The position numbers and the translations under genes were made by a program. The notes beneath the pieces are model-generated. The model saw only the letters and a list, made by a program, of their open reading frames with translations, had not been told where the DNA came from and ran no database searches. Shown here in pieces: positions 6,401-58,669 of a stretch of 64,000 nt of DNA. Position 1 is the first letter of the stretch; the number at the start of each line of letters is the position of its first letter. Source of the DNA: Gammaproteobacteria bacterium (GTDB lineage Bacteria; Pseudomonadota; Gammaproteobacteria; Eutrophobiales; Eutrophobiaceae); assembly GCA_041689615.1 (NCBI GenBank), contig JBDNFW010000033.1, positions 258,520 through 322,519 on the forward strand. The letters run 5' to 3'.

Positions 6401-9400
6401 TATTAATCACCTTGGTATAATCAAACGGCGCTAAAGCTTGGTCTAAAATTGAATCAGCAGCAGAATCCTGTGTTACTTCATAAGCACCACCACGTATACC
6501 ACTATAAAAAGTAACGTCTTCCGGTGGTGTAGTTTCAAAGATATGCAGATCGCGATAAGCCTTTTCAACAGGTCTAGCAACTTCACAATGCACCGTCGTC
6601 ACACCCGACAAAGGATGATACTGAGCATTAAGCTCTTTAATTGCATTATTTAATTCAGTTTTATCGCCACCAATAACGCATTCATTTGGTGTATTAATAA
6701 TCAATAGATAAACATGTTTAAACTTTTCTAAAACAACTTTGACTTTGTCTTCACTGGTATTAATCACACCTAGTGCCCAATCAATAGGCTGTTCTGTTCC
6801 CCATGCCGTTTGTACAGAAGTACAGGGACCAGCAAGTTCTTCTGTAAACAAACTGCTTTGTTGAATTCGTTTCAACATTTCATCACGCGCTGTCCATGTT
6901 CGCGTTGAGAAAAAACCGGCAGTCTCGCCAAGACTATAACCAATCACAGCATCAGGTTTAACAGCAAAACTGGCAACCACATCACTGATAAACGTTCCTA
7001 GCCACACTTGTCCAAAAATAACTTCCTCATGACTGAGCTCTTTGCCATCGTCTTTTTGCCAGAAACGTCCTTGTGCAAACTGAGATGCAAGTGTTTCATT
7101 TTCATTATTTAATTTTTCTAATACGCCAGGAAAAGCAATTCCCAATTCCTGTCCCATACCAAAGAAATGATTGCCTGAACCCGGATAGACAAAAGCAACT
7201 TTGCCATTTTCAGTCAATGGAGAAACTGAAAAATAACAGCGCCCATTATCAATGGAATTATTACTTTTTATTGCAGCAAGCGTTTCTTCGCGGGCTAGAT
7301 TAAATTCTTTCTCATCATTAATTAATAAGACAACGCGATACTTCTCTTTTTTATCTTCGACAACTTCATCAAAAGATAAACTTTGAATCTTACTAATTAA
7401 TGAGTCTTTATCATCAGCAGAAAGAGAAAATAATTTGGCCGTAATATTTTTAACATCAATATTAACCTGTGTTTGCTTTTGGGCTTGCTCTAAAACCACA
7501 CTGATACAATTACCATCAATACTCGTGCTATTAACTAAAGCCCGTCTTGCCCCTTTAACACTATCCTTTAACCAATAGCGGGCCTGCCCACTATTTTCAG
7601 CTGGCAAAATACAATGATGCAAGGCACTTACTGAACTAGCGACACTCATTAATCCATTTGCAGCACCGGAATGTCCGAGAGGAAATGCGTTTGTTACAGC
7701 ATGTTGTAAAGCAGGAATATTAATTACATCATCGCCGGCAGATTGACTAATATAATCAATTGCATCTAAATGACATTGTGCATCTGAACAGGCATTTTGA
7801 ATTGCAGTTATCATCGCAGACTGTTCAGGTTTTATATCGCAACCGCCCGCAGAGGCAACGCCAATACCTTTAATCAAGGCATAAACATTATCACCATCAC
7901 GTATCGCATCTTCATGGCGTTTTAAAACAAAAGCAGTTGCAGCATCGGCAATATTATTAATCTGTTCGACACTTCCTTTAACTGCTCTAAGATCACTAGC
8001 AATATCTACAGCACCAACAATAACTTGATCGAGTTCTTTTAGTTGTAGGGCGCGTACACCGGACTCAAGCGCACGTAAGCCTGAAGTTTCTTCAGAAGAA
8101 ACCGTAAAAGCCGGACCACCGATATGAAAAGCGCGAGCAATACGACTGGCAACAATGCCGCCTAGCGCACCCATTGTGCGATTTGCAGTTAATGCAGGAC
8201 CAAACGCTTGCTTAAGGTTTTCTATCCATTCGAATAAATCATTTCCACTTAAATGAACACCCAGTTTTTTTAGCCATTCACTTGCATATTTTTTTTGCAT
8301 CCAGCGAAAATGAAAATTCGTTGTATTTAAATCAAGTGCAATTCCAATAAACACTCCCGTTCTACATTGTTGTTCTGCATTCAGTTCTGATAACCCTGCA
8401 TCTTCTAAAGCATTTGCTGCAACTTCGAGCATTAATAATTGTTGTGGCAACATTTCTTTTAACTCTGCCGGCGGAATTCGATAGCGTCCTAACGGAACAT
8501 TAACCTCTTCAATTAAATTTCCCTGACATTCTTTACTGTCTGCTCCCCACCAATTATTAGGAGGCATTAACTTCATATCAGAACCAAACAATACTGCTTG
8601 ATCAAATTCCTGTTGATTGCTCCATGGACCTAGACGTGACTCCATGCCGACTATGGCAATATCAGTTTGTGTAGAGTTAGACTGCGTAGAAACAGGAGTC
8701 ACTTTCTCTTTCGGTTTGTACTCTTGTAAAAGTACATGTGCATTAATTCCACCAAAACCAAAACCACTTATCGCTGCGCGTCGAGGCGTATTATCTTCAA
8801 TAGTCCATGACTCTGCTTTATTTAGTACTTTAAATGGGCTGTTAGCTAAATCAATTTTATTCGAAGGAGATTCGTAATTTGCAGTTGGCGGCAATACGCC
8901 ATGTTTCATAGCCAACAAAGTTTTCATTAATGCCGCAGCACCAGCTGCTGTTAATAAATGGCCAACGTTACTTTTGACTGAACCAATAACACATTCACCA
9001 TCAACATTATGGTTTTGCCAAAGATTTTTTAATGACGTGAATTCAACACCATCACCAACCGGTGTACCGGTACCATGACATTCAATATGTTGTACCTGAT
9101 TTGGCTTCCAATCTGCCATTTCATAAGCCGATTGCATGGCACGGCCTTGTCCTTCTGAATCCGGTGACATGATATTGCCTTCAATATCATTCGAAAGACC
9201 TATGCCTTCAATCGTCGCGTAGATATGATCATCTTGCTCTATCGCGTCACTTAAACGCTTAAGCACAAAAATACCTGCTCCCTCACCGACAACAAGACCA
9301 TCAGCTTTACTATCAAACGGCGAACATCGACCTGATTTTGAAATAGCATTAAGTTGGGAAAAACCCATTTGCGTATACAAACAATCCGGCCGAGATAAGC

Positions 9401-10040
9401 CACCTGCCAACATAACGTCAGTACGTCCTGCAATTAGTTCATCAACTGCATATTTCAGGGAATAGAGAGAAGAAGAACAAGCCGCATCTAATGTGTAAGC
9501 GCCTGCTCCTAAGCCTAAAGCTTTTGCCAACAAACCACCCGGCAATCCGGCAACGTATCGATTTAATGGTTCTATCTTTTCTTTTCCATCATCCGAGTCG
9601 ATATTTAACTGTGCTTCAAAAAGGTGTTTAAATATTTCGTCACTAAAGAGAGATGATGACTCTGTGGGAAGCGCAATATTGCCAATGACAATACCAACAC
9701 GTTCTTTATTAATAGCATTAGTCTTCGCATCTGCCCAGGCATCCCGACCTGCATGTAATAAAATTTGATACATCGGATCCAGACGTTGAAGCAAAGAAGC
9801 ATCAACATTAAATCCAGCAGGATTAAATTCAAAATTTTGAATTAAACAAGCGCGACGTGAATTTACTTTATCCGGAGCTAATTCTTCAGAATACAATTCA
9901 TCAGCTTCTAGTCGCCAGCGATCTGCACCAACATTAATGGCAGTGTCCTTTGCATCAAGAATATTTTTCCAGAATTCATCAAGATCACTAGAACCAGGAA
10001 AAACGCCACCAATACCAACAATTGCTATTCGTTCTGCCAT
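3468..10040 (-). CDS. pfaC: PUFA synthase subunit with fused PfaB/PfaC architecture: KS, CLF, acyltransferase (GYSLGE) and two FabA-like DH domains
   Basis: 2190 aa. KS Cys context DAACSSSLYSL. A second KS-like (CLF) domain lacks the active-site Cys. AT motif VIGYSLGETAGF. Two FabA-type hotdog domains (HFVDDRVMPGTLM; AHFYEDPVWPGSLG). Confidence 0.9.
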   Translation of the reverse strand: MAERIAIVGIGGVFPGSSDLDEFWKNILDAKDTAINVGADRWRLEADELYSEELAPDKVNSRRACLIQNFEFNPAGFNVDASLLQRLDPMYQILLHAGRDAWADAKTNAINKERVGIVIGNIALPTESSSLFSDEIFKHLFEAQLNIDSDDGKEKIEPLNRYVAGLPGGLLAKALGLGAGAYTLDAACSSSLYSLKYAVDELIAGRTDVMLAGGLSRPDCLYTQMGFSQLNAISKSGRCSPFDSKADGLVVGEGAGIFVLKRLSDAIEQDDHIYATIEGIGLSNDIEGNIMSPDSEGQGRAMQSAYEMADWKPNQVQHIECHGTGTPVGDGVEFTSLKNLWQNHNVDGECVIGSVKSNVGHLLTAAGAAALMKTLLAMKHGVLPPTANYESPSNKIDLANSPFKVLNKAESWTIEDNTPRRAAISGFGFGGINAHVLLQEYKPKEKVTPVSTQSNSTQTDIAIVGMESRLGPWSNQQEFDQAVLFGSDMKLMPPNNWWGADSKECQGNLIEEVNVPLGRYRIPPAELKEMLPQQLLMLEVAANALEDAGLSELNAEQQCRTGVFIGIALDLNTTNFHFRWMQKKYASEWLKKLGVHLSGNDLFEWIENLKQAFGPALTANRTMGALGGIVASRIARAFHIGGPAFTVSSEETSGLRALESGVRALQLKELDQVIVGAVDIASDLRAVKGSVEQINNIADAATAFVLKRHEDAIRDGDNVYALIKGIGVASAGGCDIKPEQSAMITAIQNACSDAQCHLDAIDYISQSAGDDVINIPALQHAVTNAFPLGHSGAANGLMSVASSVSALHHCILPAENSGQARYWLKDSVKGARRALVNSTSIDGNCISVVLEQAQKQTQVNIDVKNITAKLFSLSADDKDSLISKIQSLSFDEVVEDKKEKYRVVLLINDEKEFNLAREETLAAIKSNNSIDNGRCYFSVSPLTENGKVAFVYPGSGNHFFGMGQELGIAFPGVLEKLNNENETLASQFAQGRFWQKDDGKELSHEEVIFGQVWLGTFISDVVASFAVKPDAVIGYSLGETAGFFSTRTWTARDEMLKRIQQSSLFTEELAGPCTSVQTAWGTEQPIDWALGVINTSEDKVKVVLEKFKHVYLLIINTPNECVIGGDKTELNNAIKELNAQYHPLSGVTTVHCEVARPVEKAYRDLHIFETTPPEDVTFYSGIRGGAYEVTQDSAADSILDQALAPFDYTKVINSAYEDGVRFFVEMGPGGSCTRMIDQILEDKAHYAKAVCVKGQNSVDNLLQILARLYVEGVDVNFSKLNINKEKQKTEYKNFISVKTGGEPFKVSAPPAKPDVIEHIQPKVKQSSVETINTSSSVTSLPMTANGDFQPMIQQMQLAEQARSEAQETFLRVSQGMTETITQAISMQMHLLNNTDDDLSQVTVRQEMPNKIDCLFDREQCMEFAVGSIGKMLGSEFADIDQYPTRVRLPDEPLMLADRILSVEGVADSLKDNPNTNGRVITEHDVLYDAWYLDLGRIPTCIAVEAGQADLFLSGYLGIDHIAKGLAVYRLLDAKITFHGPLPKAGETIHYDIRIEEFFRQDDTYLFRFNFEGSVNGEPLLTMTQGCAGFFTQQELDAGKGIVLTNMEKQQQQGVFTEDWKQLVAMQVESYSDEQLAVLREGNLAACFGESFNNIDLNNPVGLPSGRMTLVHRILKLDPNAGRFGIGQITGEADIHPDDWFLTCHFVDDRVMPGTLMYECCLHTLRVYLLRMGWIGEEDEFVYEPIIGEVSQLKCRGQVTEETKAVQYEITLKEIGYRDDGTPYVLADALMYGDHRAIVQMKNMSVQLTGLKRERLEALWEHKNTAETKQVLFDNESILAFAIGKPSEAFGDRYKIFDSERKIARLPGPPYKFLDRITSIKDCEQWVLKAGGIIEAKYDVPVDEWYFTEDNQPYMPFAVLLEVALQPCGWLAAYLGSALTSEVDISFRNLGGTATQYIKVTPEIGTLTTKVKMTSVSQSGGMIIQTYDYEMTSDQGLVYKGDTNFGFFSKQALADQIGIRDAKLYVPTELERSRGKSFVYPIDAPMPADMMRMVDDISLYDPEGGPNNLGFIEGTAKVKEEAWFFKAHFYEDPVWPGSLGLESFMQLLKVFAWERWQDELNIGEFAFESMALNQVHKWVYRGQILPVDEKVTIQAVITEIDDAEETIKADGFLTVDGRIIYQMKDFALRIT

Positions 10041-10078
10041 AACTTTATTACTCGTTCAGATTTATAAGATCTAAACTT

Positions 10079-13000
10079 CTATATTGCTTCAAGACTTAAT
10101 TGATTTTTCTCAAATGCCATTTGCAAAGAACTGTCACGTACGCATTCATAACAATCGATCAATGCTATCAACTGCCCTTTACTATCGATGAACTCTATTG
10201 ATGCATTAGCCCTATGATCAGTTTTCTCATTAACTACAGTAATAATTCTTGCTCCATCTTTTGGATAGTTGCGTTGATATTGACGGTAACTGGAAATGGC
10301 CGTCGGCAAAGAAGCAATACCTCTCTCTTCAAAACTCCAGAGGATCATCATCTGGAAGGCAGAATCAAGAATTAAAGGATCAGTTAACCAACTCGAACGT
10401 ATCGGTTGGTTCATCCACGTTGATGGTTGCGGTGCTGCGTTTACATTGGCAGCAATACCTTTATCACTACAGTGAGTTACTTCTTTAATACCTTGTAGAT
10501 CTTGCCCGTGAAACAACTGTCCATTTTTATAATATTCACCTTGAGTTTTATTGTATTTCTTATTTACCACTTTTAATTGCGGTAACACATTCGTTTCATA
10601 ACTATCAGCCAAAATCATTATTGCACTGGCATGCAATAAGTCATCAGAACGTAATTCAACTGGCACTAAAGAAACATCACCTTTATGAATAATGTTGCCC
10701 GCAAGAATTCTCAAACGAATAGTTTCGTCAGCTTTTAAAGTAACACCTTTTAATACACGAAAATCGTCAAAGCCCTGAAACTGCATGCCCGGATTTAAAT
10801 GTAATGCACCATGTGCAAACCATTCGATAATAATAGCCACAGGCAAAACAGCCTGACCATTCATTACATGTGATTTTAGAAACGCATGTGTATTAACTGA
10901 AAGCTCACGTTCAAAAGCTAAAGACAGCTCGCTGTTTTCGACTGACAATGCTGAATAATTCTTTAAAGGTATTTTTTGTAAAATATTATCTGATTCACCG
11001 AGTACAACTGTCTCCACAGGTCCATCAGATTCTATCTCATTTATTAAATACTCAGCACCGGCTCTGAGTCCAATAACACCAACGCCTTCTTCTGCAAATA
11101 ATTTTTTTAATGCAGGAGTCACCATGCCACCATCCCAGGGACCCCAGTTAACTGATAAGACTTTGCAATCCTTTCTATTGTGATTTTCTTGTACTGCTTG
11201 CTTATTTAAGATTTCATTTGCCGCAGCGTAGTCAACCTGGCCTTTACGCCCCAATCTAGCTGTCGTCGATGAAAATAAAACTATCAGTTTTAATGTGTCA
11301 TTATTAGTTGCTGTCAATAAATTATCTAAACCATCTACCTTGGTAGAATAAACAGTATTGAATTGTTCTTCTGTTTTATCTTCTATCAAACGATCCGCAA
11401 GCACACCAGCAGCATGTATTATTCCAGTAACATTACCTAACTCAGCACGTGCTAAATCAATTGTATTTGTAACCGCATCAACATCAGTAACATCAACTGA
11501 GCTGTACTGAACTTTTGTACCCGTCTGTTCGATGCGTTCCAGCGTTGCTTTAATTTCACGATTAGCCAAAATGGATTGATATTGTTTTTCAAGTTCAGCA
11601 GGACGCAAATTTTTTTCTGCTTCATCCATAATCGCTTTCTTGATACTTGCCGCATCGGACAAAGATGATAACCATTCTGGTTCGTTCTTCGGTTCTGGAC
11701 TGCGGCCTAATAGTAACAAACTACATTGATATGTTTCGGCTAACTTAACCGCTACTTCAGCAGTCACGCCGCGCGCACCTCCGGAAATAACAATAAGATC
11801 GTCTTGATTTAAAGCTGTTCGTTCTTGTTTACTATCAGAGAGCGCCTCTTCTTCTAATAATAACTGACTTGCTTTTTCATCTGACAAACCGACTTCTAAA
11901 GGCCCATCGAGAAAGAGTTCATTTTGAATTAAATCAACTGATGCTGAAGCTTGATTAATATCAATCGATTTGCAATTAACATCAGACCATTCTTTATCTG
12001 CCGTTTTAATAATGCCATACAGCCCAGCCTGAACAGGATTAGTTTCAATACTGCCATTAAATCCAAAACTTCCGCCCAATGATGTTATTGAAGCAAGTAT
12101 GCCTTTTGATTTTTTTAGACTATCAGCACAACGCTGCACCAATGAAAATGTATCAAGCAAATATTGTTTATCCGCTTCTACTTTGGCGCAAATAATTAAA
12201 GCACCTAATTCATCAATTGCTGCTTGACCATTATTAATAAGCTTTGTTTTATATCCTTTTTCTTTTAATGTCGTTGCTAACTGATCAGCCAGTTCACCAC
12301 CCTCTTTCGTAATCCAGATTTCTTTATCTTTATTAAAGTCTATCTGTTGGCGAGACCCTGTTTCATCAAGTTCAGCAAGGTGAACAACACTGCGGACAAT
12401 TCTTGATTCTTTTTTGCTTTCAACGACTGCTTCTTTGACTGCTGCAACTGTTACTACTTTATTACCAGTAACAACTTGCTCGTTCATATAATCAATGATT
12501 TGTTGCAAGGTCTGTAAAGCAGCTAAATCATCCGCTGATACAGTCGGCAAGTCTGGCATTTTGTCTTGTAATGCCGATAAGATTTCCACACGTTTAATTG
12601 AGTCGATACCAAGATCACTATCCAGATTCATTTCCAGATTTAACATATCCACTGGATAACCGGTTTTATCTGCCACAACCTCTAATAATACTTCTGATAA
12701 ATTCGAATCACTTACTGGGAGTGACTGTTCTTGTTGATCAGAAGGTAATGCTTCAGAAATATTAAAAACATCAACAATCGATTGCAATGTTTGTAAGGTG
12801 GCCATGTCATCAGGACTAACTGAAGGTAATTCAGGTATGCGTTCTTGTATTGCAGATAAAATTTCAACGCGCTTAATCGAATCAATACCGAGATCGCTAT
12901 CCAGATTCATTTCCAGATTTAACATATCTACCGGATAACCGGTTTTGTCTGCCACAACTTCAAGTAGAGTATCTGCAAAACCGTTAATAACACTTGTCGT

Positions 13001-16000
13001 ATTAACAGCAACTACAACAGGTGCAGATTCCGTTTGTTCAGTGATAAATAATTCTGTTATAGATCGTAAGGTTTGCAATTGCCCCAATTCATCTGGACTG
13101 ATTGTTGGTAATTCTGGCATTGCTTCTTGCAATGCCGATAAAATCTCAACACGTTTGATCGAATCGATACCGAGGTCGCTATCAAGATTCATATCCAGTT
13201 CCAACATATCTATTGGATAACCGGTTTTTTCTGAAACGATTTCTAATAAAACTTTAGCGAAGTTGTCATCAACTTGAGTCGCTGCTGCCACAGTTTTTGT
13301 TGTAGTACTTGCGGCAATCCCCACCGGTCTACCGGCAGCAATAAATTCAACAATATGTTGCAAGAACTGGAAGGTGCCTAATTCTTCCGGATTAACAGCT
13401 TGCGACCAGGGTAATTGTTCTTGCAAGGCAGAAAGAATTTCAACACGCTTAATTGAATCAATTCCCAAATCAGTATCCAGACTCATATCGAGACTTAACA
13501 TTTCTAATGGATAACCCGTTTTTTCTGAGACGACTTTTAATAACAAATTATTTATATCAATATCCGTTGTTTCAATTGAAACTGGAGCAGACTGAATGGT
13601 TTCTTCTCTCTCTTTAACAAGCGGCGCTTTGATTAGATTATTTTTTTTTGGCTCAGATTTTATTGATTCTGTTTTTTGTGCCGGCGCACTGACTTGTGTT
13701 AGCTGTTGTACAGCTAAAGGTTGTCCTGACATTAATCGAAATTGCTGATCTAACAATGATTGAATTGATTTTTGTGCTGTCTCCTGTCCTTCAAGATACT
13801 GCTGATGTAAACGCGCGGTTTGTTCCTGCATTTTTTGTAAGGCAATAATGCTTTCCTGCGTAGCTTGTAATAAACCGCTGCTTGCAACAGTGCTAACTGA
13901 TGTTGTTACTTGTTCAGTTTCTTTAGAAGAAATATTTTTTACATCATTCGTCATGGCATTAACATTAATTACTGGTTTAGATTTTGGTTTACTTGCTGGA
14001 CGCGGCTTACGCGGCATTGTGTAATTCGCACCACTTATTGCTATGGTCATTACAGGTTTTACATCTTTAGCCGGTCTTTCCATGGTTGAACATGATGCAT
14101 CCCATTTATTAAGTTCAACTTGTTGTCCATTAACTGCTAACGTTGCTAACACAAGAGCCAAATCATATTGACCTTGCTTCTTGCCGACTGAGGCATCAAT
14201 AGCAATAGTAGTAATAGGTTTGTCTGCAAGAATTGAATTAATTAATCCGGTTAATATTTTTCCCGGGCCTACTTCAACAAAAGTCGTAATACCTTCTGCA
14301 TATAGTTTTTCAACCTGTTCGACAAAACGAACAGGCGATGCTAATTGATATGCTAATAGTTGTTTCGCTGCGTCAACATCTTTTGGATAAGTGTCAGTCG
14401 TTGTATTGGATAAAACCTGATAATTGTTTTTTTCGAACTTAAATGGCGCCAGTGCTTCAGCAAATGGTTTCGCAGCATCAGCAACAAATGAACTGTGAAA
14501 TGCTGCTGCTACAGGTAATTTAATTGCACGTATTTTTTCAGCTTTAGCAACTTTTGCAAAAGCATCCACTTGATCTGTTGAACCTGATAACACAACCTGT
14601 GTTGGTGAGTTATGATTTGCAATAACCAGTTCTAACTTATTTTTTTTCAATAAGGACTCTACTTGTTCATAAGGCGCAACGACTGCCAGCATAGAACCTC
14701 TATCACCTTCACCTGTAGCCATTAACTCACCACGAATTCGTGATAAGCGATGCAATGTTTCAGCGTTATACATGCCTGCTGCCGATAGTGCAGTTAATTC
14801 ACCATAACTATGACCAATCGCAGCTTTTGGCTTAACAGAAAAATAATTTAATACTTCAAGCGCACCAAGACTTACAGCACCAATGGCAGGCTGTGCATTT
14901 TGCGTTTGTCGTAAAGTTTCTTCCTGATGTTTTTGATCAGCTTTGGAAAAAACAGGAATAGGATAAAGCACATCACCCAAGCTTTCTTTTCCTAGGCTTT
15001 CTTTACCCGTCGCTTCTATGAAAATATTGTTTGCTTGTTCTAATACATTTAAAAACTGAGGAAACTGACAGGCTAGATCACGACACATGCCAGTGTATTG
15101 CGAACCTTGTCCCGGGAAAACAAAAGCAATGTTGTCGTTGTTTCTTTCAGAACTGTATGCAACACCATCAGGTCTTTGCCATGCTGATTCAGATGAAGAT
15201 GTTAATTGCTTTTTAATATCAGCAATAAACTTTTGTCTATCTTCATTTGATTTTTCAATGACTATCGTTAAACGATGAGCTGCATCGCTTTTAAAACTTT
15301 GACATGAATCATAAGCAAAAAACCTGAGTTCATTCCATGAATCAAGAATGGTAGACTCTGGTAACTGTTTTATTAATTCTTCTTTTGAATCTACGCTTAA
15401 AGCAATAATTAAAACAGTACCATCCCATTCAATTTCGGTTTTCGTTTCTTCAGCTTCTTCAAGTACACAATGAAAATTGCTGCCGCCAAAACCAAACGAA
15501 CTTAATCCCGCACGACGCGGAGTAGATTGTGTTTTTAACCATGGACGTTTCACGGTATTGAGATAAACAGGTGAAGTACCGGGATTAATAATTTCTAATG
15601 GTTCATCTACTTTAATACTCGGTGGTAAAACTTTATATTTTAAAGCCATGGCCGTTTTAATCAGTCCGGCAACACCGGCTGCAGCTTTGGTATGTCCGAT
15701 CATCGATTTTACTGATCCAATCGCACACCATGTTTCACCATCATTATCTTGTCCATAAACACCGGACAACGCAGTTGCTTCAACAGCATCACCAACTGAT
15801 GTACCTGTACCATGCGCTTCAACTAACTCAATGCTTCTTGGAGTAACATCCGCTTCACGATAGGCATTCCATAATGCTTTGGTTTGACCTGTAGCACTCG
15901 GTGCATAAATGGCATTACCTCTACCATCAGACGAAGAACCGATACCACGTAATACCGCATAGATTTTATCGTTGTCACGTTTAGCATCGTCAAGTCGTTT

Positions 16001-16843
16001 TAATACAACGGCACCAATGCCTTCACCTAAAATTGTTCCATCGCCTTCTTTAGCAAACGGACGACTATTACCTGTTGGCGATAAGGCCGGTGTTTTACTA
16101 AAACACATATACATAAAAATATCGTTAAAGGTATCGACACCACCGGTAATAGCCATATCAACTCTGCCGGCACTCAGTTCCATTGAAGCAAGGTGTAATG
16201 CACTTAATGAACTCGCACAAGCTGCATCAACAACACAATTGGTGCCACCAAAATCAAATCTATTAGCAATACGACCGGCTGCAACATTACCTAATAAACC
16301 AGGGAATGAATTCTCTTGCCAGGGCACATAACCATCAGCAATGCGTTGTACGACATCTTCTGCTGTTTCAGGATCTATTCCAGCATCGGCTAATGCTTTT
16401 CGCCATATTGGATGACCGAGTCGAGCACCTAACGGAATCACTAATTCTAATGTACCGGTCACACCCATAATGACGCTGGTGCGATCACGATCAAATTCAC
16501 GACCATCACCTGCATCTTTAGCAGTGGAATAATTCGCATCTAATAATGCCTGACGCGTAACCACCATACCTAATAATTGTGTGGTATCCGTCGCTTCAAT
16601 ATTGTTCGGACTTAGTCCGTATAACAGTGGGTTAAATTCTTGCGCATTAATAAAACCACCACGTTTAGCATAAGTCATATCTGGTGCAGTTTTATCCGCA
16701 TCAAAATAATCTTCCGGTTTCCAATGCGTATCAGGTATATCAGTTATCGCATCAACGCCTTCACGAATATTGGTCCAATACTCTTGAGGATTATCTGCTT
16801 TAGGAAATAGACAACCAATACCAACAATAGCAAGAGGCTTCAT
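10079..16843 (-). CDS. pfaA: PUFA synthase PfaA: KS-MAT-4xACP-KR-DH
   Basis: 2254 aa. KS motif VVDAACASSLSALH. MAT motif GHSYGE. Four ACP repeats (LGIDSIKRVEILSAL). KR Rossmann motif ISGGARGVTAEVA. PKS-type DH domain at the C-terminus. Confidence 0.92.
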   Translation of the reverse strand: MKPLAIVGIGCLFPKADNPQEYWTNIREGVDAITDIPDTHWKPEDYFDADKTAPDMTYAKRGGFINAQEFNPLLYGLSPNNIEATDTTQLLGMVVTRQALLDANYSTAKDAGDGREFDRDRTSVIMGVTGTLELVIPLGARLGHPIWRKALADAGIDPETAEDVVQRIADGYVPWQENSFPGLLGNVAAGRIANRFDFGGTNCVVDAACASSLSALHLASMELSAGRVDMAITGGVDTFNDIFMYMCFSKTPALSPTGNSRPFAKEGDGTILGEGIGAVVLKRLDDAKRDNDKIYAVLRGIGSSSDGRGNAIYAPSATGQTKALWNAYREADVTPRSIELVEAHGTGTSVGDAVEATALSGVYGQDNDGETWCAIGSVKSMIGHTKAAAGVAGLIKTAMALKYKVLPPSIKVDEPLEIINPGTSPVYLNTVKRPWLKTQSTPRRAGLSSFGFGGSNFHCVLEEAEETKTEIEWDGTVLIIALSVDSKEELIKQLPESTILDSWNELRFFAYDSCQSFKSDAAHRLTIVIEKSNEDRQKFIADIKKQLTSSSESAWQRPDGVAYSSERNNDNIAFVFPGQGSQYTGMCRDLACQFPQFLNVLEQANNIFIEATGKESLGKESLGDVLYPIPVFSKADQKHQEETLRQTQNAQPAIGAVSLGALEVLNYFSVKPKAAIGHSYGELTALSAAGMYNAETLHRLSRIRGELMATGEGDRGSMLAVVAPYEQVESLLKKNKLELVIANHNSPTQVVLSGSTDQVDAFAKVAKAEKIRAIKLPVAAAFHSSFVADAAKPFAEALAPFKFEKNNYQVLSNTTTDTYPKDVDAAKQLLAYQLASPVRFVEQVEKLYAEGITTFVEVGPGKILTGLINSILADKPITTIAIDASVGKKQGQYDLALVLATLAVNGQQVELNKWDASCSTMERPAKDVKPVMTIAISGANYTMPRKPRPASKPKSKPVINVNAMTNDVKNISSKETEQVTTSVSTVASSGLLQATQESIIALQKMQEQTARLHQQYLEGQETAQKSIQSLLDQQFRLMSGQPLAVQQLTQVSAPAQKTESIKSEPKKNNLIKAPLVKEREETIQSAPVSIETTDIDINNLLLKVVSEKTGYPLEMLSLDMSLDTDLGIDSIKRVEILSALQEQLPWSQAVNPEELGTFQFLQHIVEFIAAGRPVGIAASTTTKTVAAATQVDDNFAKVLLEIVSEKTGYPIDMLELDMNLDSDLGIDSIKRVEILSALQEAMPELPTISPDELGQLQTLRSITELFITEQTESAPVVVAVNTTSVINGFADTLLEVVADKTGYPVDMLNLEMNLDSDLGIDSIKRVEILSAIQERIPELPSVSPDDMATLQTLQSIVDVFNISEALPSDQQEQSLPVSDSNLSEVLLEVVADKTGYPVDMLNLEMNLDSDLGIDSIKRVEILSALQDKMPDLPTVSADDLAALQTLQQIIDYMNEQVVTGNKVVTVAAVKEAVVESKKESRIVRSVVHLAELDETGSRQQIDFNKDKEIWITKEGGELADQLATTLKEKGYKTKLINNGQAAIDELGALIICAKVEADKQYLLDTFSLVQRCADSLKKSKGILASITSLGGSFGFNGSIETNPVQAGLYGIIKTADKEWSDVNCKSIDINQASASVDLIQNELFLDGPLEVGLSDEKASQLLLEEEALSDSKQERTALNQDDLIVISGGARGVTAEVAVKLAETYQCSLLLLGRSPEPKNEPEWLSSLSDAASIKKAIMDEAEKNLRPAELEKQYQSILANREIKATLERIEQTGTKVQYSSVDVTDVDAVTNTIDLARAELGNVTGIIHAAGVLADRLIEDKTEEQFNTVYSTKVDGLDNLLTATNNDTLKLIVLFSSTTARLGRKGQVDYAAANEILNKQAVQENHNRKDCKVLSVNWGPWDGGMVTPALKKLFAEEGVGVIGLRAGAEYLINEIESDGPVETVVLGESDNILQKIPLKNYSALSVENSELSLAFERELSVNTHAFLKSHVMNGQAVLPVAIIIEWFAHGALHLNPGMQFQGFDDFRVLKGVTLKADETIRLRILAGNIIHKGDVSLVPVELRSDDLLHASAIMILADSYETNVLPQLKVVNKKYNKTQGEYYKNGQLFHGQDLQGIKEVTHCSDKGIAANVNAAPQPSTWMNQPIRSSWLTDPLILDSAFQMMILWSFEERGIASLPTAISSYRQYQRNYPKDGARIITVVNEKTDHRANASIEFIDSKGQLIALIDCYECVRDSSLQMAFEKNQLSLEAI
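12560..13560 (-). repeat. four tandem ~280-bp intragenic repeats encoding the ACP domains of pfaA
   Basis: Near-identical DNA blocks recur at about 12600, 12880, 13160 and 13445 (gaatcgataccgag.tcgctatc.agattcat...ggataaccggtttt). Confidence 0.85.
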
Positions 16844-16854
16844 CTGAGTACCTC

Positions 16855-17090
16855 CAAAAATGCACTTTTCCCGCGATCGCCGCGTCGGCTCCGTACTTGA
16901 ATACTCACAGAGTACGATGTTCTCATGTATGTTTTATACATTGCGATTCTCGGCAATTGCTCCCGGCATTGCTCTACCTCCTGCATCCATGCAGTCGTCC
17001 GCGTATGCATCCTTGCACTTATGTACAGGGATGTACTGTATACCGGTTTTGCAGGAGCAAAAACCGGACACGAAAAAATCACTATTTCTT
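16855..17090. repeat. intercistronic repeat element copy A (pfaD/pfaA spacer), flanked by 11-bp inverted repeats CTGAGTACCTC (16844-16854) and GAGGTACTCAG (17091-17101)
   Basis: Shares the core aaaaatgcactttt...atactcacagagtacgatgt.ctcatgtat with the copies at 49991-50120 and 32480-32592. The flanking inverted repeat contains the pfaA SD (GGAGG). Confidence 0.6.
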
Positions 17091-32463: not shown

Positions 32464-32479
32464 CCAGGACTCCTCTGAA

Positions 32480-32592
32480 AATGTCTTTTATTCGCGATAG
32501 CGGCGTCAGCACTGTGCTCGAATCCTCATGTATTACATATACACTGCGGTTCTGTGCGCAGTGCTTCCTTACTCTCACAAAAAAATCCTATC
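32480..32592. repeat. intercistronic repeat element copy B (mnhC/mnhD spacer), flanked by 14-bp inverted repeats AGGACTCCTCTGAA (32466-32479) and TTCAGAGGAGTCCT (32593-32606)
   Basis: Core cgcgatagcggcgtcagcactgtgctcgaat.ctcatgtat...ccttactc.cacaaaaaaa is shared with copies A and C. It lacks the 18-bp acTCacaGAgtacgatgt hairpin segment. Confidence 0.6.
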
Positions 32593-32952
32593 TTCAGAGG
32601 AGTCCTTAAACTCCTGTTGTATTTCATCATCTTCAACTGAACCAAAGGCATGATAAAGCCGAATAACGATGGCGAGCCCTAATGCGGTCGTTGATATGCC
32701 CACGACAATCGCAGTCAGAATTAACACATGTGGTAAGGGACTCGAATAAAGCGTATTTGATTCATTTAGAATCGGGGCTGTACCACCCGTAATTTTTCCC
32801 ATTGAGATAAATAGAATAAAAATGGATGTTTGAAAGATATTGATGCCTATTAATTTCTTTACCAGATTCTTATGCGCAATAACAATATACAGCCCTATCA
32901 TCATTAATATGACGACGACCCAGTAATTAAACGCCCCCAGAATATCCATCAA
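32575..32952 (-). CDS. MnhC/NuoK-like small antiporter subunit
   Basis: 125 aa, 3 TM, NuoK/MrpC-like profile. Confidence 0.6.
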   Translation of the reverse strand: MMDILGAFNYWVVVILMMIGLYIVIAHKNLVKKLIGINIFQTSIFILFISMGKITGGTAPILNESNTLYSSPLPHVLILTAIVVGISTTALGLAIVIRLYHAFGSVEDDEIQQEFKDSSEDRIFL

Positions 32953-49321: not shown

Positions 49322-49987
49322 ATGCTTAAAGTACTCAGTAACAGTAAATTTTTAATCCCAGCGATGGTCATCCTCGCCGTATTAGCGGCAAGCAGTGGCT
49401 TTTATATCTCGTTAAAGCAATCACAAAATCAACAGCAACCAGACTTTGGATCGTCGCCAAATATCGAAGGCTTATTCTGGCCAAACCCGAAACAAATACT
49501 CGATTTCAATACACTGGATCAAACAGGTAATACATTTGGACTTGAACAGGTAAAAGGCAAATGGTCGTTTGTTTTCTTCGGCTACACACACTGTCCCGAT
49601 GTCTGTCCTGTTACTATGTCAGTCATGAGCGAAACATATAAGCAACTTTCAGTTGATTACGATGACTTACAAATTCTCTTTGTCAGTGTTGATCCTGAAC
49701 GCGATACCACAGAAAAGCTGGCTCAATATGTTTCCTATTTTAATGAAGATTTTATTGGCTTGGGTGGTGATACTGAAAAAGTTGACAGCTTAACGAAACA
49801 AATTGGCGTAGCGTACTATCTAAATAATGAGGAACAAGAAGATGGGTATTTAGTTGATCATTCAGCATCAATTTTTGTCTTTGATCCTAAAGCGCGCTTA
49901 GTTGGAAAACTATCAGCACCACATGAGTCAGCAAAGGTTATCGAGCAGTTCACTAATATAAAAAACTTCATTGACGGAACCCTATAA
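49322..49987 (+). CDS. sco1: SCO1/SenC copper chaperone (thioredoxin-like)
   Basis: 221 aa. N-terminal TM helix. FFGYTHCPDVCP Cu-binding CxxxC motif. Confidence 0.8.
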   Translation: MLKVLSNSKFLIPAMVILAVLAASSGFYISLKQSQNQQQPDFGSSPNIEGLFWPNPKQILDFNTLDQTGNTFGLEQVKGKWSFVFFGYTHCPDVCPVTMSVMSETYKQLSVDYDDLQILFVSVDPERDTTEKLAQYVSYFNEDFIGLGGDTEKVDSLTKQIGVAYYLNNEEQEDGYLVDHSASIFVFDPKARLVGKLSAPHESAKVIEQFTNIKNFIDGTL

Positions 49988-49990
49988 AAA

Positions 49991-50120
49991 TGCACTTTTT
50001 TCACAATAGCTGTGTCAGTGTCGTGCTCAAATACTCACAGAGTACGATGTCCTCATTTATTATTAATACACTCCGGTTTTCCGCGCGCGCCTTCCTTACT
50101 CGTGCAAAAAAAATTACTAT
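49991..50120. repeat. intercistronic repeat element copy C (sco1/pcuAC spacer), flanked by inverted repeats GGAACCCTATAAAAA (49976-49990, contains the sco1 stop) and TTTTTATAAGGTTCC (50121-50135, contains the pcuAC SD)
   Basis: aaaaatgcactttttt...gtgctcaaatactcacagagtacgatgtcctcat...ccttccttactcgtgcaaaaaaaa matches copies A and B. Confidence 0.6.
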
Positions 50121-50135
50121 TTTTATAAGGTTCCT

Positions 50136-53170: not shown

Positions 53171-54601
53171 TTAACCAGCTAATGCCGACAAACACAAAGC
53201 CATCAACGCATTAGGCGCCAAGCCCAATAACAAGATCAACAATCCATTAACACTTAATACCATTCGCATTTGCTTAGATGCTTTAATCGCTGTCATCGAA
53301 TCTGCTTTATCAAAATACATCAGCTTAACTATACGCAAGTAGTAGTAAGCCCCGATAATAGAAAAGACTACGGCAACGGCAGCTAGGGTTACAAAACCCG
53401 ATGCCACCAGTTCTTTTAAGACAAACCATTTTGACCAGAAGCCAAGAAACGGTGGAACACCTGCCATTGAAAACATTAGACACAACATAATAAAAGCAAA
53501 CCAGGGACTACGGTCTGACAGGCCTTTAAAGTCATCCAGCATTTCAGCTTCAAAACTATTTCGACTTAACAGGATAATCATACCAAACGCACCCATGCTC
53601 ATTAGCGCATAGCTGATAATATAAAACATCGAACCGGAAAAACCGGTACCTGTTCCTGCAATAAGGCCGAGGAATAAAAATCCAACATGTGCAATCGTTG
53701 AATAAGCCAACATGCGTTTTATATTTGTCTGGGCTATAGCAATGATGTTACCGAGGCCCATTGATAGAACAGCAAGTATCATTAAGATTGACTGCCAGTC
53801 AGAAATTAATGGAAACAAACCATCAACCAATACACGCATTGCCATAGCAAAGGCCGCAAGTTTTGGAGCGGTACTAATGAACAAGGTTACTGAGGTTGGC
53901 GCACCTTGATAAACATCGGGTACCCACATATGAAATGGTGCAGCACCTAATTTGAATGCTATTCCAATAATCATAAAGATCATGCCAAAGACAAGATAGG
54001 AACGATTAATAGAATCACTGCTTGCCGCTTCAGCGATACTAGCTAATTGTAAATGTCCGGTAAGTCCATAAATCATTGAAATACCATATAACAACATACC
54101 CGATGCCAAGGCACCGAGAATAAAATATTTCATCGCCGCTTCAGAGGCTGATTCGGAATCACGTTGCATGGCAACCATGGCATACAAAGACAGTGATAAT
54201 AATTCCAGACCAAGATACACAGATAAAAGACTCGCAGCAGAAGCCATAATCATCATGCCAAGTACCGCAAATAATCCCAGGACAAAGTATTCGCCTTTTA
54301 GAGATCGTTGTTCTTTCAGGTATTCATAGGAATAAAGAAAAACAAAGAAGGTAATACCACACATAAAGGCTTTGAGCGTCGCACTCATGGCATCACTAAT
54401 AAAACCATTATTAAATGCATATGCAACATCAGTTGGAAAGTTATTCAACACTAATACTAGTGTGATTAACAAAGTTGCCTGAGTAACCCAGTATGTTAAT
54501 GAATGTAGTGGGTCTTTATTAAAGGCATCGACAATCAATACCAGACACGCTAAAGCAAATAAGGTGATTTCGGGTATAGCCAGTATTAAGTCAGCATTCA
54601 T
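53171..54601 (-). CDS. nuoN: NADH-quinone oxidoreductase subunit N
   Basis: 476 aa. Last gene of the nuo operon. Confidence 0.9.
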   Translation of the reverse strand: MNADLILAIPEITLFALACLVLIVDAFNKDPLHSLTYWVTQATLLITLVLVLNNFPTDVAYAFNNGFISDAMSATLKAFMCGITFFVFLYSYEYLKEQRSLKGEYFVLGLFAVLGMMIMASAASLLSVYLGLELLSLSLYAMVAMQRDSESASEAAMKYFILGALASGMLLYGISMIYGLTGHLQLASIAEAASSDSINRSYLVFGMIFMIIGIAFKLGAAPFHMWVPDVYQGAPTSVTLFISTAPKLAAFAMAMRVLVDGLFPLISDWQSILMILAVLSMGLGNIIAIAQTNIKRMLAYSTIAHVGFLFLGLIAGTGTGFSGSMFYIISYALMSMGAFGMIILLSRNSFEAEMLDDFKGLSDRSPWFAFIMLCLMFSMAGVPPFLGFWSKWFVLKELVASGFVTLAAVAVVFSIIGAYYYLRIVKLMYFDKADSMTAIKASKQMRMVLSVNGLLILLLGLAPNALMALCLSALAG

Positions 54602-56140: not shown

Positions 56141-58117
56141 TTAGTTCAATATTCCATGTACAAATACGCCAAGCAGTACAAGCAAACCGATAATGATGGC
56201 AAAGGCATAATCATAGAGATAACCCGTCTGTATCTTGCGGACAACACTTGAAATAATTCCGACACTTCGTGCAGTACCGTTAACAAACAAACCATCAATA
56301 ATTTTCTCATCACCAATTTTCCAAAGCAGCTGCCCTATTTCTCTTGTACCTCTGGCAAAAACCAGTTGATTAAAATCATCAAAACCATATTTGTTGAGTA
56401 AAATTTTATGAATAAATCCGGTCTTACTCACGATCTTGGCTGGCAGTTCCGGAAACTTGATGTAACAAAGCCATGCAACGAATATTCCTGAGGACATTAA
56501 AATAAGAACCAGAGGATGTTGAATAGAATGCATCAAAAATCCGCCTATACCATGATAGTTGTGCCCCATTTCTGCCAACACATCATGTTCGGAAGCTACA
56601 TAAATAGCGTCGCCAAAATAGCCACCGAATAACATCGGACCAATTAAAAATGCACCTAATATTAATGAAGGTATTGCCAGGATTGATAAAGGCACGGTAA
56701 CGACAGCTGGTGCTTCATGCAAATGCTTCCATGTTTCGATATCCATTCTTTGCTCGCCATGAAAGGTCATAAAAAGTAAACGAAAGCTATATAAGGCCGT
56801 GATGAATACACCAATCAGAACAGAGTAGTAAGCGAACTGCGCGCCATATAATGAAGAGTGATGAACTGCTTCAATAATCGCATCTTTGGAAAAGAAACCC
56901 GAAGTACCGGGAAAACCAATCAATGCCAGAGTACCAAAGAAGCAGGTTATCCAGGTAATCGGCATGGCTTTATATAAGCCACCCATTTTTCGCATATCCT
57001 GTTCGTGATGCATAACAATAATCACTGCACCTGCGGCCAGGAATAATAATGCTTTAAAGAAAGCATGTGTCACTAGATGAAACATTGCTGCCGCATAAGC
57101 TGAAGCACCTAAAGCAACCGTCATATAACCGAGTTGCGACAAGGTTGAGTAAGCAACAACACGTTTAATATCGTTTTGCACCAGACCAAGAAAGCCCATA
57201 AACAGCGCAGTAATCGAGCCAATGATTAAAATAAAACTGAGTGCGGTTTCTGATAATTCAAATAACGGTGACATCCTCGATACCATAAAGATACCAGCAG
57301 TCACCATAGTTGCGGCATGGATTAATGCAGAGATAGGTGTTGGACCTTCCATTGAATCAGGTAGCCAAACATGTAATGGGACTTGTGCTGATTTACCCAT
57401 CGCACCGATAAATAGACAGATACATATTACTGTCATTAATGACCAGGGCTCGTTACCAAAAATTGTTATTGTTGTTTCTGCATGTCGTCCAACATCGGCA
57501 AAGACAGTCGCATAATCTAATGAATTGAAATACATTAGTACTGCGGCAATACCCAGTAGAAAACCAAAGTCACCTACTCTGTTCACTAAAAAGGCTTTCA
57601 TATTAGCGAAGATGGCTGTTTCTTTTTTGTACCAGAAACCAATCAATAAATATGAAATAACCCCCACTGCTTCCCAACCGAAAAATAACTGTAGGAAGTT
57701 ATTCGACATCACCAGCATCAACATGGCAAAGGTAAACATGGAGATATAACTAAAAAAACGTTGATAGCCCGGATCATCATGCATGTAACCAATGGTATAT
57801 ATATGGATCATCCAGGAAACAAAGGTCACAACAACCATCATCGTTACAGAAAGTGGATCAATCAAAAATCCAATTTGAAAATCAATGCCGCCACTACTTA
57901 ACCATGTGTATAGCGCCTGATTGTACACGGCAGCTCCATCAAACATATGATGTTTATAAGCCACCATAGAAAGAATACTAGAGACTGCCACACCAATGAT
58001 AGTGACCCAATGCGCGCCACTTCTTCCAATCACTTTGCCAAACAAACCCGCGATCAAAGAACCAACTAACGGTGCTAGCACAATGATTAAATAAATTGTT
58101 TCCATGTTCTCAAACAT
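56141..58117 (-). CDS. nuoL: NADH-quinone oxidoreductase subunit L
   Basis: 658 aa. WLPDSMEGPTPISALIHAATMVTAG motif. Confidence 0.9.
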   Translation of the reverse strand: MFENMETIYLIIVLAPLVGSLIAGLFGKVIGRSGAHWVTIIGVAVSSILSMVAYKHHMFDGAAVYNQALYTWLSSGGIDFQIGFLIDPLSVTMMVVVTFVSWMIHIYTIGYMHDDPGYQRFFSYISMFTFAMLMLVMSNNFLQLFFGWEAVGVISYLLIGFWYKKETAIFANMKAFLVNRVGDFGFLLGIAAVLMYFNSLDYATVFADVGRHAETTITIFGNEPWSLMTVICICLFIGAMGKSAQVPLHVWLPDSMEGPTPISALIHAATMVTAGIFMVSRMSPLFELSETALSFILIIGSITALFMGFLGLVQNDIKRVVAYSTLSQLGYMTVALGASAYAAAMFHLVTHAFFKALLFLAAGAVIIVMHHEQDMRKMGGLYKAMPITWITCFFGTLALIGFPGTSGFFSKDAIIEAVHHSSLYGAQFAYYSVLIGVFITALYSFRLLFMTFHGEQRMDIETWKHLHEAPAVVTVPLSILAIPSLILGAFLIGPMLFGGYFGDAIYVASEHDVLAEMGHNYHGIGGFLMHSIQHPLVLILMSSGIFVAWLCYIKFPELPAKIVSKTGFIHKILLNKYGFDDFNQLVFARGTREIGQLLWKIGDEKIIDGLFVNGTARSVGIISSVVRKIQTGYLYDYAFAIIIGLLVLLGVFVHGILN

Positions 58118-58363
58118 GAGTAACCCGTAAATTGTATAAGTTGCCGAAATGATAGCGCTGTGTTGGTGCGAACATGAGCGTGCTCACGACCGTAATCATA
58201 GCAGTAGCTATGGTGAAGGGAGTATGTGCGCTCATGGCGTGCCAAAACAAGCTAGCACTCGGCAAACATAATTTCCTGCCATTTCGATTTTCACCATATT
58301 TATAAAATATTAGATTCATAATTTTTTAAAAATTGTTCATATGTACTTGTGCAATTTACGGGT
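58118..58363. mobile_element. MITE-like element of about 246 bp inserted exactly between the nuoK stop and the nuoL start, with about 20-bp terminal inverted repeats (AACCCGTAAATTGtAtAAGT / ACTTgTgCAATTTACGGGTT)
   Basis: The terminal inverted repeats match 19/21. There is an internal 8-bp stem (CATGAGCG/CGCTCATG). nuoK-nuoL are normally adjacent, and the 69-aa ORF inside is not credible. Confidence 0.55.
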
Positions 58364-58669
58364 TTAACCCTTCATTGTTCCAAGATCATCAACATTGATA
58401 GAATTTTTCTTACGGAATAAAACGATGAGAATAGCCAAACCAATCGCAGATTCAGCTGCAGCCACCGTCAATATAAAAAAGACAAATACTTGTCCATGAA
58501 TATCGCCAAGAAAATGAGAAAAAGCGATAAAGTTCATGTTCACGGAAAGCAACATCAATTCAACACACATTAGTAATATAAGAATGTTTTTTCTATTTAG
58601 AAAAATACCTGCAACACTGATACAAAATAACAGTGCTGCTAATGATAAGACTTCAGGTAAAGTAATCAT
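58364..58669 (-). CDS. nuoK: NADH-quinone oxidoreductase subunit K
   Basis: 101 aa, 3 TM. Confidence 0.9.

Follow-up and report, generated by a model that had tools for sequence, protein, structure and literature searches.

A conserved single-copy element with inverted-repeat ends between nuoK and nuoL in uncultured marine gammaproteobacteria

In a small group of uncultured marine gammaproteobacteria, a 243-nt element separates nuoK from nuoL within the complex I operon. It is an insertion with terminal inverted repeats and an internal hairpin, it is found as a single orthologous copy, and it is strongly conserved while evolving as non-coding sequence. The element is most likely an old insertion, present once, that has the form of a miniature inverted-repeat element. 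We tentatively favor the reading that this transposon-like insertion was retained for a function, most likely as a structured intercistronic RNA in the nuo transcript. Operons are known to harbor small transposon-like insertions, which are usually young, multi-copy and decaying, whereas this one is single-copy, orthologous and constrained. It would mark a retained functional non-coding stretch inside a highly conserved respiratory operon, and it offers a concrete case of a 243-nt insertion that is tolerated or exploited between genes that normally abut and are translationally coupled.

The element and its empty sites

We refer to the whole stretch of DNA that was analyzed, 64 kb in length, as the window. 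The nuoK-nuoL spacer at 58118-58363 is exactly 246 bp, and the gene coordinates confirm the original prediction that an element fills it between the nuoK stop and the nuoL ATG. The genes, the parts of the element and two of the reading frames within it are as follows.

58364-58669, minus strand: nuoK, 101 aa; its stop codon adjoins the element; PF00420 in orthologues
56141-58117, minus strand: nuoL, 658 aa; PF00662 and PF00361
58122-58364, minus strand (the nuo operon strand): the entire insert, 243 nt with both repeats included, defined by empty-site alignment and nhmmer
58345-58364, minus strand: operon-proximal terminal inverted repeat (mRNA 5' side), AACCCGTAAATTGCACAAGT; 1 of 20 columns variable across three lineages
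58122-58141, minus strand: operon-distal terminal inverted repeat (mRNA 3' side), ACTTATACAATTTACGGGTT; carries the GGG at 58124-58126
58142-58264, no strand assigned: internal imperfect hairpin, 123 nt, G+C about 50%, apical loop at 58203-58206
58265-58344, no strand assigned: AT-rich segment from the hairpin to the operon-proximal repeat, 80 nt, G+C about 25%
58110-58319, minus strand: ORF69, 69 codons; its TGA overlaps nuoL codons 2-3
58174-58305, plus strand: ORF43, 43 codons; hydrophobic, helix-like N-terminus; GGTG 5 nt upstream of the ATG

The arms of the inverted repeat are AACCCGTAAATTGTATAAGT at 58122-58141 and ACTTGTGCAATTTACGGGTT at 58345-58364. They are 20 nt long and complementary at 18 of 20 positions, a value reached by none of 20,000 shuffles of the spacer (shuffle maximum, 16). 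These data bear out the proposed terminal inverted repeats of about 20 bp. The proposed internal stem is also present, as the 123-nt imperfect hairpin, which stacks directly onto the terminal stem in a region whose surrounding G+C is about 38%. The left terminal repeat had been said to overlap the nuoK stop codon, and base 58364 is indeed both the outermost position of the repeat and the final base of that stop (TAA, 58366-58364, minus strand). At the other end, the nuoL ATG lies 4 nt beyond the element, and the GGG at 58124-58126 sits 6 nt upstream of this ATG in place of the AAGGGA Shine-Dalgarno sequence of empty-site relatives. The element is shorter than 500 bp and lacks a transposase, and the frames within it are only 40-69 codons long and match no family.

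We compared this junction with related loci chosen through NuoL homologues that are 87-93% identical, the closest relative's NuoL being 93% identical to that of the window. These loci belong to uncultured marine gammaproteobacteria, some of them labelled Thiotrichaceae. In eight related lineages (L001, L003, L005, L054, L055, L056, L058 and L059) only 2-3 nt separate the nuoK stop from the nuoL ATG, typically AAGGGATAGATA-ATG, as had been predicted for a normal nuoK-nuoL pair. Eleven loci have such empty sites (L001, L003-L007, L054-L056, L058 and L059). Because these eight lineages have empty sites, the element is an insertion.

The terminal inverted repeats coincide with the insertion boundaries set by the empty sites, and an nhmmer profile of the element matches the window end to end at 58364-58122. 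When compared to relatives with a 3-nt spacer, the insertion adds 243 nt. This equals the repeat-to-repeat span, so no target duplication is required. TA, TTA or GGGTTA can be read at both junctions; since the repeat end AACCC itself has GGGTT as its complement, these readings do not allow a target duplication to be assigned. The direct repeats of old MITE copies are expected to fade (PMC10969869).

Copy number, divergence and descent

We searched for further copies of the element at several scales. In the 64-kb window, the terminal-repeat 13-mer with at most 2 mismatches occurred at chance level, with no second copy. Across 185,579 species, each represented by one genome, the 17-base repeat pattern gave 45 single matches, which is about the chance number, and the terminal repeat gave 4 chance matches in IMG/VR. 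None of these 45 genome or 4 viral matches extended past the pattern, and none revealed a parent insertion sequence, in which AACCCGTAAATTG would be the repeat sequence expected to flank the transposase. The two hairpin cores gave 0 and 0 matches in IMG/VR, and blastn against plasmids and phages returned AT-rich low-complexity matches only. In JGI metagenomes, the two-ended repeat pattern found one contig, L053, at the same nuoK-nuoL junction. An nhmmer profile run over 554 kb of collected sequence, including the window and L053, returned orthologues only and no second copy. Rfam gave nothing relevant for the whole window at the gathering threshold or for the region at E<=10, an exact look-up of the window NuoK sequence returned no record, and a literature search on the repeat sequence and on nuoK/nuoL intergenic repeats found nothing.

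With ORF69 as the query, 5.8 billion protein clusters yielded four clusters of one or two contigs each. Three of the four have readable DNA, and all three lie at nuoK-nuoL: L060, which is identical to the window, L057/L061 and L053. The comparisons below therefore use three element lineages with DNA (the window, equal to L060; L053; and L057/L061). L057 and L061 (GCA_024449935.1 and GCA_024449835.1) carry the element on contigs of 2.5-5 kb with serial numbers above 13 million, and their bacterium is a minor component of very large assemblies.

The fourth, P0150, came from an exhaustive ORF69 profile run against 1.84 billion representative proteins, in which the only other new matches were two repetitive proteins judged spurious. 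P0150 represents a more divergent lineage on a 2,889-bp JGI contig, known from its ORF translation alone (68 aa, 66% identical). It keeps 37 of the 46 hairpin-covering codons, and its AT-rich part and 3' repeat have diverged; by back-translation the 3' repeat is CAATATGTGGGTT, with three changes. The translation ends in VGQ and a stop, which, for a locus known only as translation, is compatible with CAATGA overlapping a nuoL start. Its amino-acid differences map to the same spots as the variable columns of the other lineages (apical loop and bulges).

Across the three lineages, 32 of 244 columns of the element vary (13%). The terminal repeats vary at 5% of columns, the hairpin at 8.8% (11/125) and the AT-rich segment at 24% (19/80), making the hairpin the most conserved long part and the AT-rich segment the least conserved. 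In nuoH-L, the variable columns amount to 13.9%, 4.8% and 52.4% at codon positions 1, 2 and 3, respectively. Even the AT-rich segment thus varies far less than third codon positions (24% vs 52%), and for the element as a whole the difference from nuoH-L third positions is highly significant (binomial P ~1e-37). The element is about as constrained as the first codon positions of the neighboring complex I genes, and the lineages that share it have nearly saturated silent sites. For the window and L053, identity is 92% in the element and about 86% in the nucleotide sequence of the flanking genes, with only about 50% at the four-fold degenerate sites of these genes. Judging from these alignments, strong purifying selection appears to have acted on the nucleotide sequence of the element.

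The original prediction described the element as MITE-like. As a statement of form this stands, since the element is small, has terminal inverted repeats, lacks a transposase and is an insertion, and a site filled in three lineages and empty in eight speaks for past mobility, as expected of a MITE. As a statement of membership in a repeated mobile family it does not stand. A MITE is expected to have multiple dispersed copies, and we found no second copy, the direct scan of the source genome covering the 64-kb window. The prediction had itself named two findings that would speak against it, namely terminal repeats with no other copy and relatives with the same conserved spacer. No collection searched yielded another copy of the repeats, and relatives do carry orthologues at the same site, including an open 69-codon frame. 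In our view, the most fitting description is an ancient transposon-like insertion, palindromic and single-copy, that purifying selection has retained, with "MITE-like" describing its form.

These data bear directly on the idea that the element is an ordinary selfish MITE, a member of a multi-copy family mobilized in trans that is tolerated between nuoK and nuoL and has no function. Its form would fit (243 bp, 20-nt terminal inverted repeats, an AT-rich part and a stable hairpin transcript), relatives have empty sites, the source genome was read over 64 kb only, and the same genome holds another, true multi-copy family in stop-to-start gaps. However, no second copy appeared in the window, L053, the genomes of 185,579 species, IMG/VR, plasmids or phages; the two-ended pattern hit only the orthologous site in JGI data; and ORF69 occurs in just four of 5.8 billion clusters. 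Moreover, a neutral copy could not have kept about 92% identity while four-fold sites dropped to about 50%. We consider a functionless selfish copy very improbable.

The other family in the window has the terminal inverted repeats AGGACTCCTCTGAAAATG...CATTTTCAGAGGAGTCCT and occupies 16846-16960, 32464-32606 and 49985-50135. Its three copies in 64 kb each fill a stop-to-start gap, and their sequence is unrelated to the nuoK-nuoL element. A similarity of placement to a repeat family had been pointed out; the element does not belong to this family, whose terminal repeats are different. In L053, a different hairpin-forming repeat with GTGAAA/GTTAAA-rich units is found at 8580-8725, 9219-9426 and 10033-10235, and also at 1407-1587 and 2844-2992; the gaps that it occupies are nuoH-nuoI, nuoI-nuoJ and nuoJ-nuoK. 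The corresponding genes of the window are closer together, with nuoJ-K and nuoH-I overlapping or abutting (0-2 nt) and 55 nt between nuoI and nuoJ.

We examined the descent of the carriers in trees and pairwise distances. The window and L053 were sisters in 299-300 of 300 bootstraps. A clade of all three carriers, adding L057/L061, was recovered in 23-32 of 300 bootstraps (~10%), and third-position identity to the window is 0.61 for L057/L061 vs 0.61-0.63 for the element-free L001 and L054-L056. Because the carriers are not recovered as one clade, a single gain is not demonstrated; the element may have been gained once on a short internal branch, lost several times, or spread laterally into the same site. 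The pairwise element differences are 19, 20 and 26, at host third-position identities of 0.69, 0.61 and 0.59. Element distances thus scale with host distances, which fits vertical co-divergence under constraint.

The patchy distribution could also be produced by a site-specific or "homing" mobile element that spread horizontally, or that was moved by recombination, in which case the identity between copies would reflect youth. The carriers form no clade, L057/L061 is no closer to the window than are element-free lineages, the site is always the same, and GGGTTA can be read at both junctions, all of which would suit such an element. Yet the scaling of element with host distances holds in all three pairs. 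Ordinary synonymous divergence in the flanking codons continues right up to the edges of the element, leaving no co-transferred tract, and this disfavors a recent co-transfer of flanks. In addition, the AT-rich part diverges faster than the hairpin, the graded pattern of P0150 is typical of long vertical descent, and searches of viral and plasmid collections returned no copy. Horizontal spread of this kind is quite unlikely in our judgment.

Reading frames within the element

ORF69 is annotated by gene callers in public assemblies. We compared its variation with that expected of a coding sequence. Its variable columns are distributed 10:6:9 over codon positions 1, 2 and 3, and 14 codons have a non-synonymous change vs 6 with synonymous-only change. 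About 6 of 46 core codons show a third-position change vs about 24 expected from the neighboring genes. The two plus-strand frames show a similar pattern; for ORF43, the corresponding distribution is 4:5:5 and the position of the stop drifts. Neither Pfam nor NCBIfam has a match for ORF69, ORF43 or ORF40. We rejected a coding role for all three frames on their codon-position pattern and lack of a family match, and for the same two reasons we conclude that constraint acts on nucleotides and not on a protein.

ORF69 might still be thought to encode a real small membrane protein and to be a new accessory gene in the operon, with its translation coupled to that of nuoL. In all four lineages the frame is open, and it runs in operon orientation, contains a hydrophobic stretch and ends in a TGA that overlaps the nuoL start. 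However, the copies were found through ORF69, so its openness is partly ascertainment. The frame shows no excess of third-position change, its non-synonymous changes outnumber the synonymous-only ones, its ATG has no preceding Shine-Dalgarno sequence, and it matches no family. Taken together, these observations make a protein product extremely improbable.

RNA fold and a proposed role in the nuo transcript

The original prediction raised the possibility that the element carries a promoter or terminator that uncouples nuoLMN. We searched for such sites with a tool scan and a relaxed scan across the three lineages. The element contains no sigma-70-like match of at least 9/12, no 8/12 match is conserved throughout the three lineages, and no intrinsic terminator is conserved among the three. 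We dropped promoter- or terminator-based uncoupling of nuoLMN because the element has no conserved site for it. The absence of a promoter or terminator consensus in the element is compatible with read-through. The predicted geometry of the RNA points in the opposite direction from uncoupling, towards preserved coupling.

The same scans weigh on a role at the DNA level, in which the element would be an internal promoter with its operator, or a protein-binding palindrome, regulating nuoLMN transcription. The primary sequence of both arms is conserved and shows no compensatory change, which would fit sequence-specific recognition of duplex DNA, and Correia elements supply promoters and IHF sites (PMC2649163, PMC10969869). 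We nevertheless regard a DNA-level role as improbable, given the sigma-70 results and a 123-bp imperfect palindrome that is far larger than usual operators.

We folded both strands of the element. In the window, the minus (sense) strand folds at -78 kcal/mol (z -5.3 vs shuffled) and the plus (antisense) strand at -94 kcal/mol (z -7.8 vs shuffled). In the three-lineage comparison, the plus strand reaches -94, -87 and -88 kcal/mol vs -74, -67 and -74 for the minus strand, and is thus better by 14-20 kcal/mol. The difference arises from eight conserved G-U pairs of the plus strand, in place of which the sense strand has C-A mismatches.

Variation is distributed unevenly over the fold. Paired columns vary less than unpaired ones (11/142 vs 21/102; Fisher P = 0.004), and the variable hairpin columns fall mostly in the apical loop, other loops and bulges, leaving the stems nearly invariant. 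On the sense consensus fold, 6 one-sided substitutions preserve pairing, mostly as G-U, and pairing is lost in 5 cells, compared to 3 and 8, respectively, on the antisense fold. No stem shows a double compensatory change among the three lineages. The structure is therefore supported by where variation falls and not by covariation. The evidence on strand is split, with fold energy favoring the plus strand and substitutions favoring the sense strand. One speculative way of combining the two is that the plus strand was the original functional strand and that, after its fixation, the element has been filtered as part of the nuo mRNA.

If the plus strand were the functional one today, the element could be the source of a small structured RNA, or of a module resembling type I toxin-antitoxin systems and built on ORF43, carried by a transposon-like vehicle. 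The fold is more stable on this strand in all three lineages, the eight strand-specific G-U pairs are almost all conserved, and the hydrophobic start of ORF43 with the GGTG ahead of its ATG would suit a toxin. However, a type I toxin should be a hydrophobic ORF under coding constraint, and the even 4:5:5 pattern and drifting stop of ORF43 are not what such constraint produces. There is no convincing conserved promoter or terminator on the plus strand and no family or Rfam match, and substitutions in the stems break more pairs on this strand than on the other. These data suggest that a plus-strand function is unlikely.

We return to the sense RNA, the only one of the two that needs no extra promoter to exist. 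The probability that positions -14 to -5 relative to nuoL are unpaired is predicted to be 0.02-0.03 with the element vs 0.21-0.80 in empty-site relatives, and the element is thus predicted to sequester the nuoL ribosome-binding site.

We infer transcription through the element, a coupling mechanism and any processing in the following form. The element would be transcribed on the sense (minus) strand as part of the nuo polycistronic mRNA. In the terminal stem, the 13-20 nt after the nuoK UAA would pair with a stretch that ends 4 nt before the nuoL AUG and includes the GGG of the nuoL Shine-Dalgarno region. The nuoK stop and the nuoL start would thereby become neighbors at the base of a compact fold shaped like a Y. 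On reaching the nuoK UAA, a terminating ribosome would occupy and open the 5' arm, so that the nuoL ribosome-binding site beside the stop codon would become accessible, and translational coupling would in this way be maintained across the 243 nt of the insert. The long hairpin would compact the untranslated stretch and, by analogy with what has been shown for Correia and ERIC elements in other bacteria (PMC10969869, PMC2649163), may also be a site of RNase III or RNase E processing or of stability control. This model would account for the fact that the terminal repeats are nearly invariant.

The primary-sequence conservation of the hairpin (~91%) goes beyond what the coupling stem alone explains and is not fully explained by it. 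A more specific form of the favored reading, which we regard as possible but doubtful, is that the element is an undescribed cis-regulatory RNA of the complex I operon. Its stem would tie the translation of nuoL and nuoMN to the termination of nuoK, and its hairpin would serve as a site of regulated processing or binding, or would give rise to a small RNA acting in trans. If true, this would be a clade-specific control point between the NuoA-K and NuoL-N modules that is absent in other bacteria.

We compared the element with known intergenic repeats. Chunjie, a MITE from Geobacter uraniireducens, is described as a 235-bp insertion inside an undisrupted pst operon (Chen et al. 2008, PMC2516098, as relayed in PMC10969869). 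Going by that summary, the element resembles Chunjie in its size, its terminal inverted repeats and its position between genes of an intact operon. Chunjie is there credited with dozens of copies, direct repeats and recent activity (PMC10969869). Unlike Chunjie, the element is single-copy in the collections searched, lacks a clear target duplication, and combines age with conservation across lineages; the two have no detected similarity in sequence.

Correia elements of Neisseria are co-transcribed with their neighbors, and their repeats pair in the mRNA to form a stem that is an RNase III target (PMC2649163, PMC10969869). The element is likewise small with terminal inverted repeats. Correia elements, however, number in the hundreds and carry TA target duplications and promoter and IHF motifs; we found no other copies of the element, no clear target duplication and none of these motifs. 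The ERIC/IRU sequences of enterobacteria are imperfect palindromes in transcribed intergenic regions of operons, with an orientation-dependent effect on mRNA stability (PMC10969869). ERIC and the element share a long palindrome with an internal extra segment. ERIC is about 127 bp and occurs in 30 to ~700 copies per genome, compared to one copy per genome for the element, and the two have no sequence similarity. No Rfam or sequence similarity links the element to Correia, ERIC or other named families.

Conserved structured cis-acting RNAs are found inside long operons, as in the case of the EAR RNA of the Bacillus eps operon and the put RNAs. Like these, the element is a conserved, structured, non-coding stretch in a mid-operon gap; it matches neither EAR nor any other Rfam family, and antitermination could be proposed only by analogy.

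Three further candidates were set aside. In minus orientation, the element bears a resemblance, and only that, to a retron msr-msd region (flanking inverted repeats, AT-rich small stem-loops and then a long hairpin). We rejected a retron RNA because there is no reverse transcriptase gene, and nuoL (PF00662/PF00361) lies downstream instead. An integron attC site was dropped, as the core-site consensus fits one end only, judged by eye. An IS200/IS605-type end was dropped as well, since that family has no terminal inverted repeats.

Other repeats were noted elsewhere in the window. Just downstream of nuoN (53171-54601, minus strand) are two direct-repeat pairs, 51351-51434/52378-52461 and 52324-52385/53171-53232, which are 62-84 nt long and 90-94% identical. 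One member of the second pair overlaps the nuoN 3' end, which suggests that these repeats are duplicated gene-end fragments. Four tandem units of about 280 nt, 71-76% identical, occupy 12491-13542 inside the ORF at 10079-16843 (minus strand). This ORF belongs to a pair of giant ORFs that lie next to each other (2254 aa and 2190 aa), and the tandem units are probably repeated protein domains.
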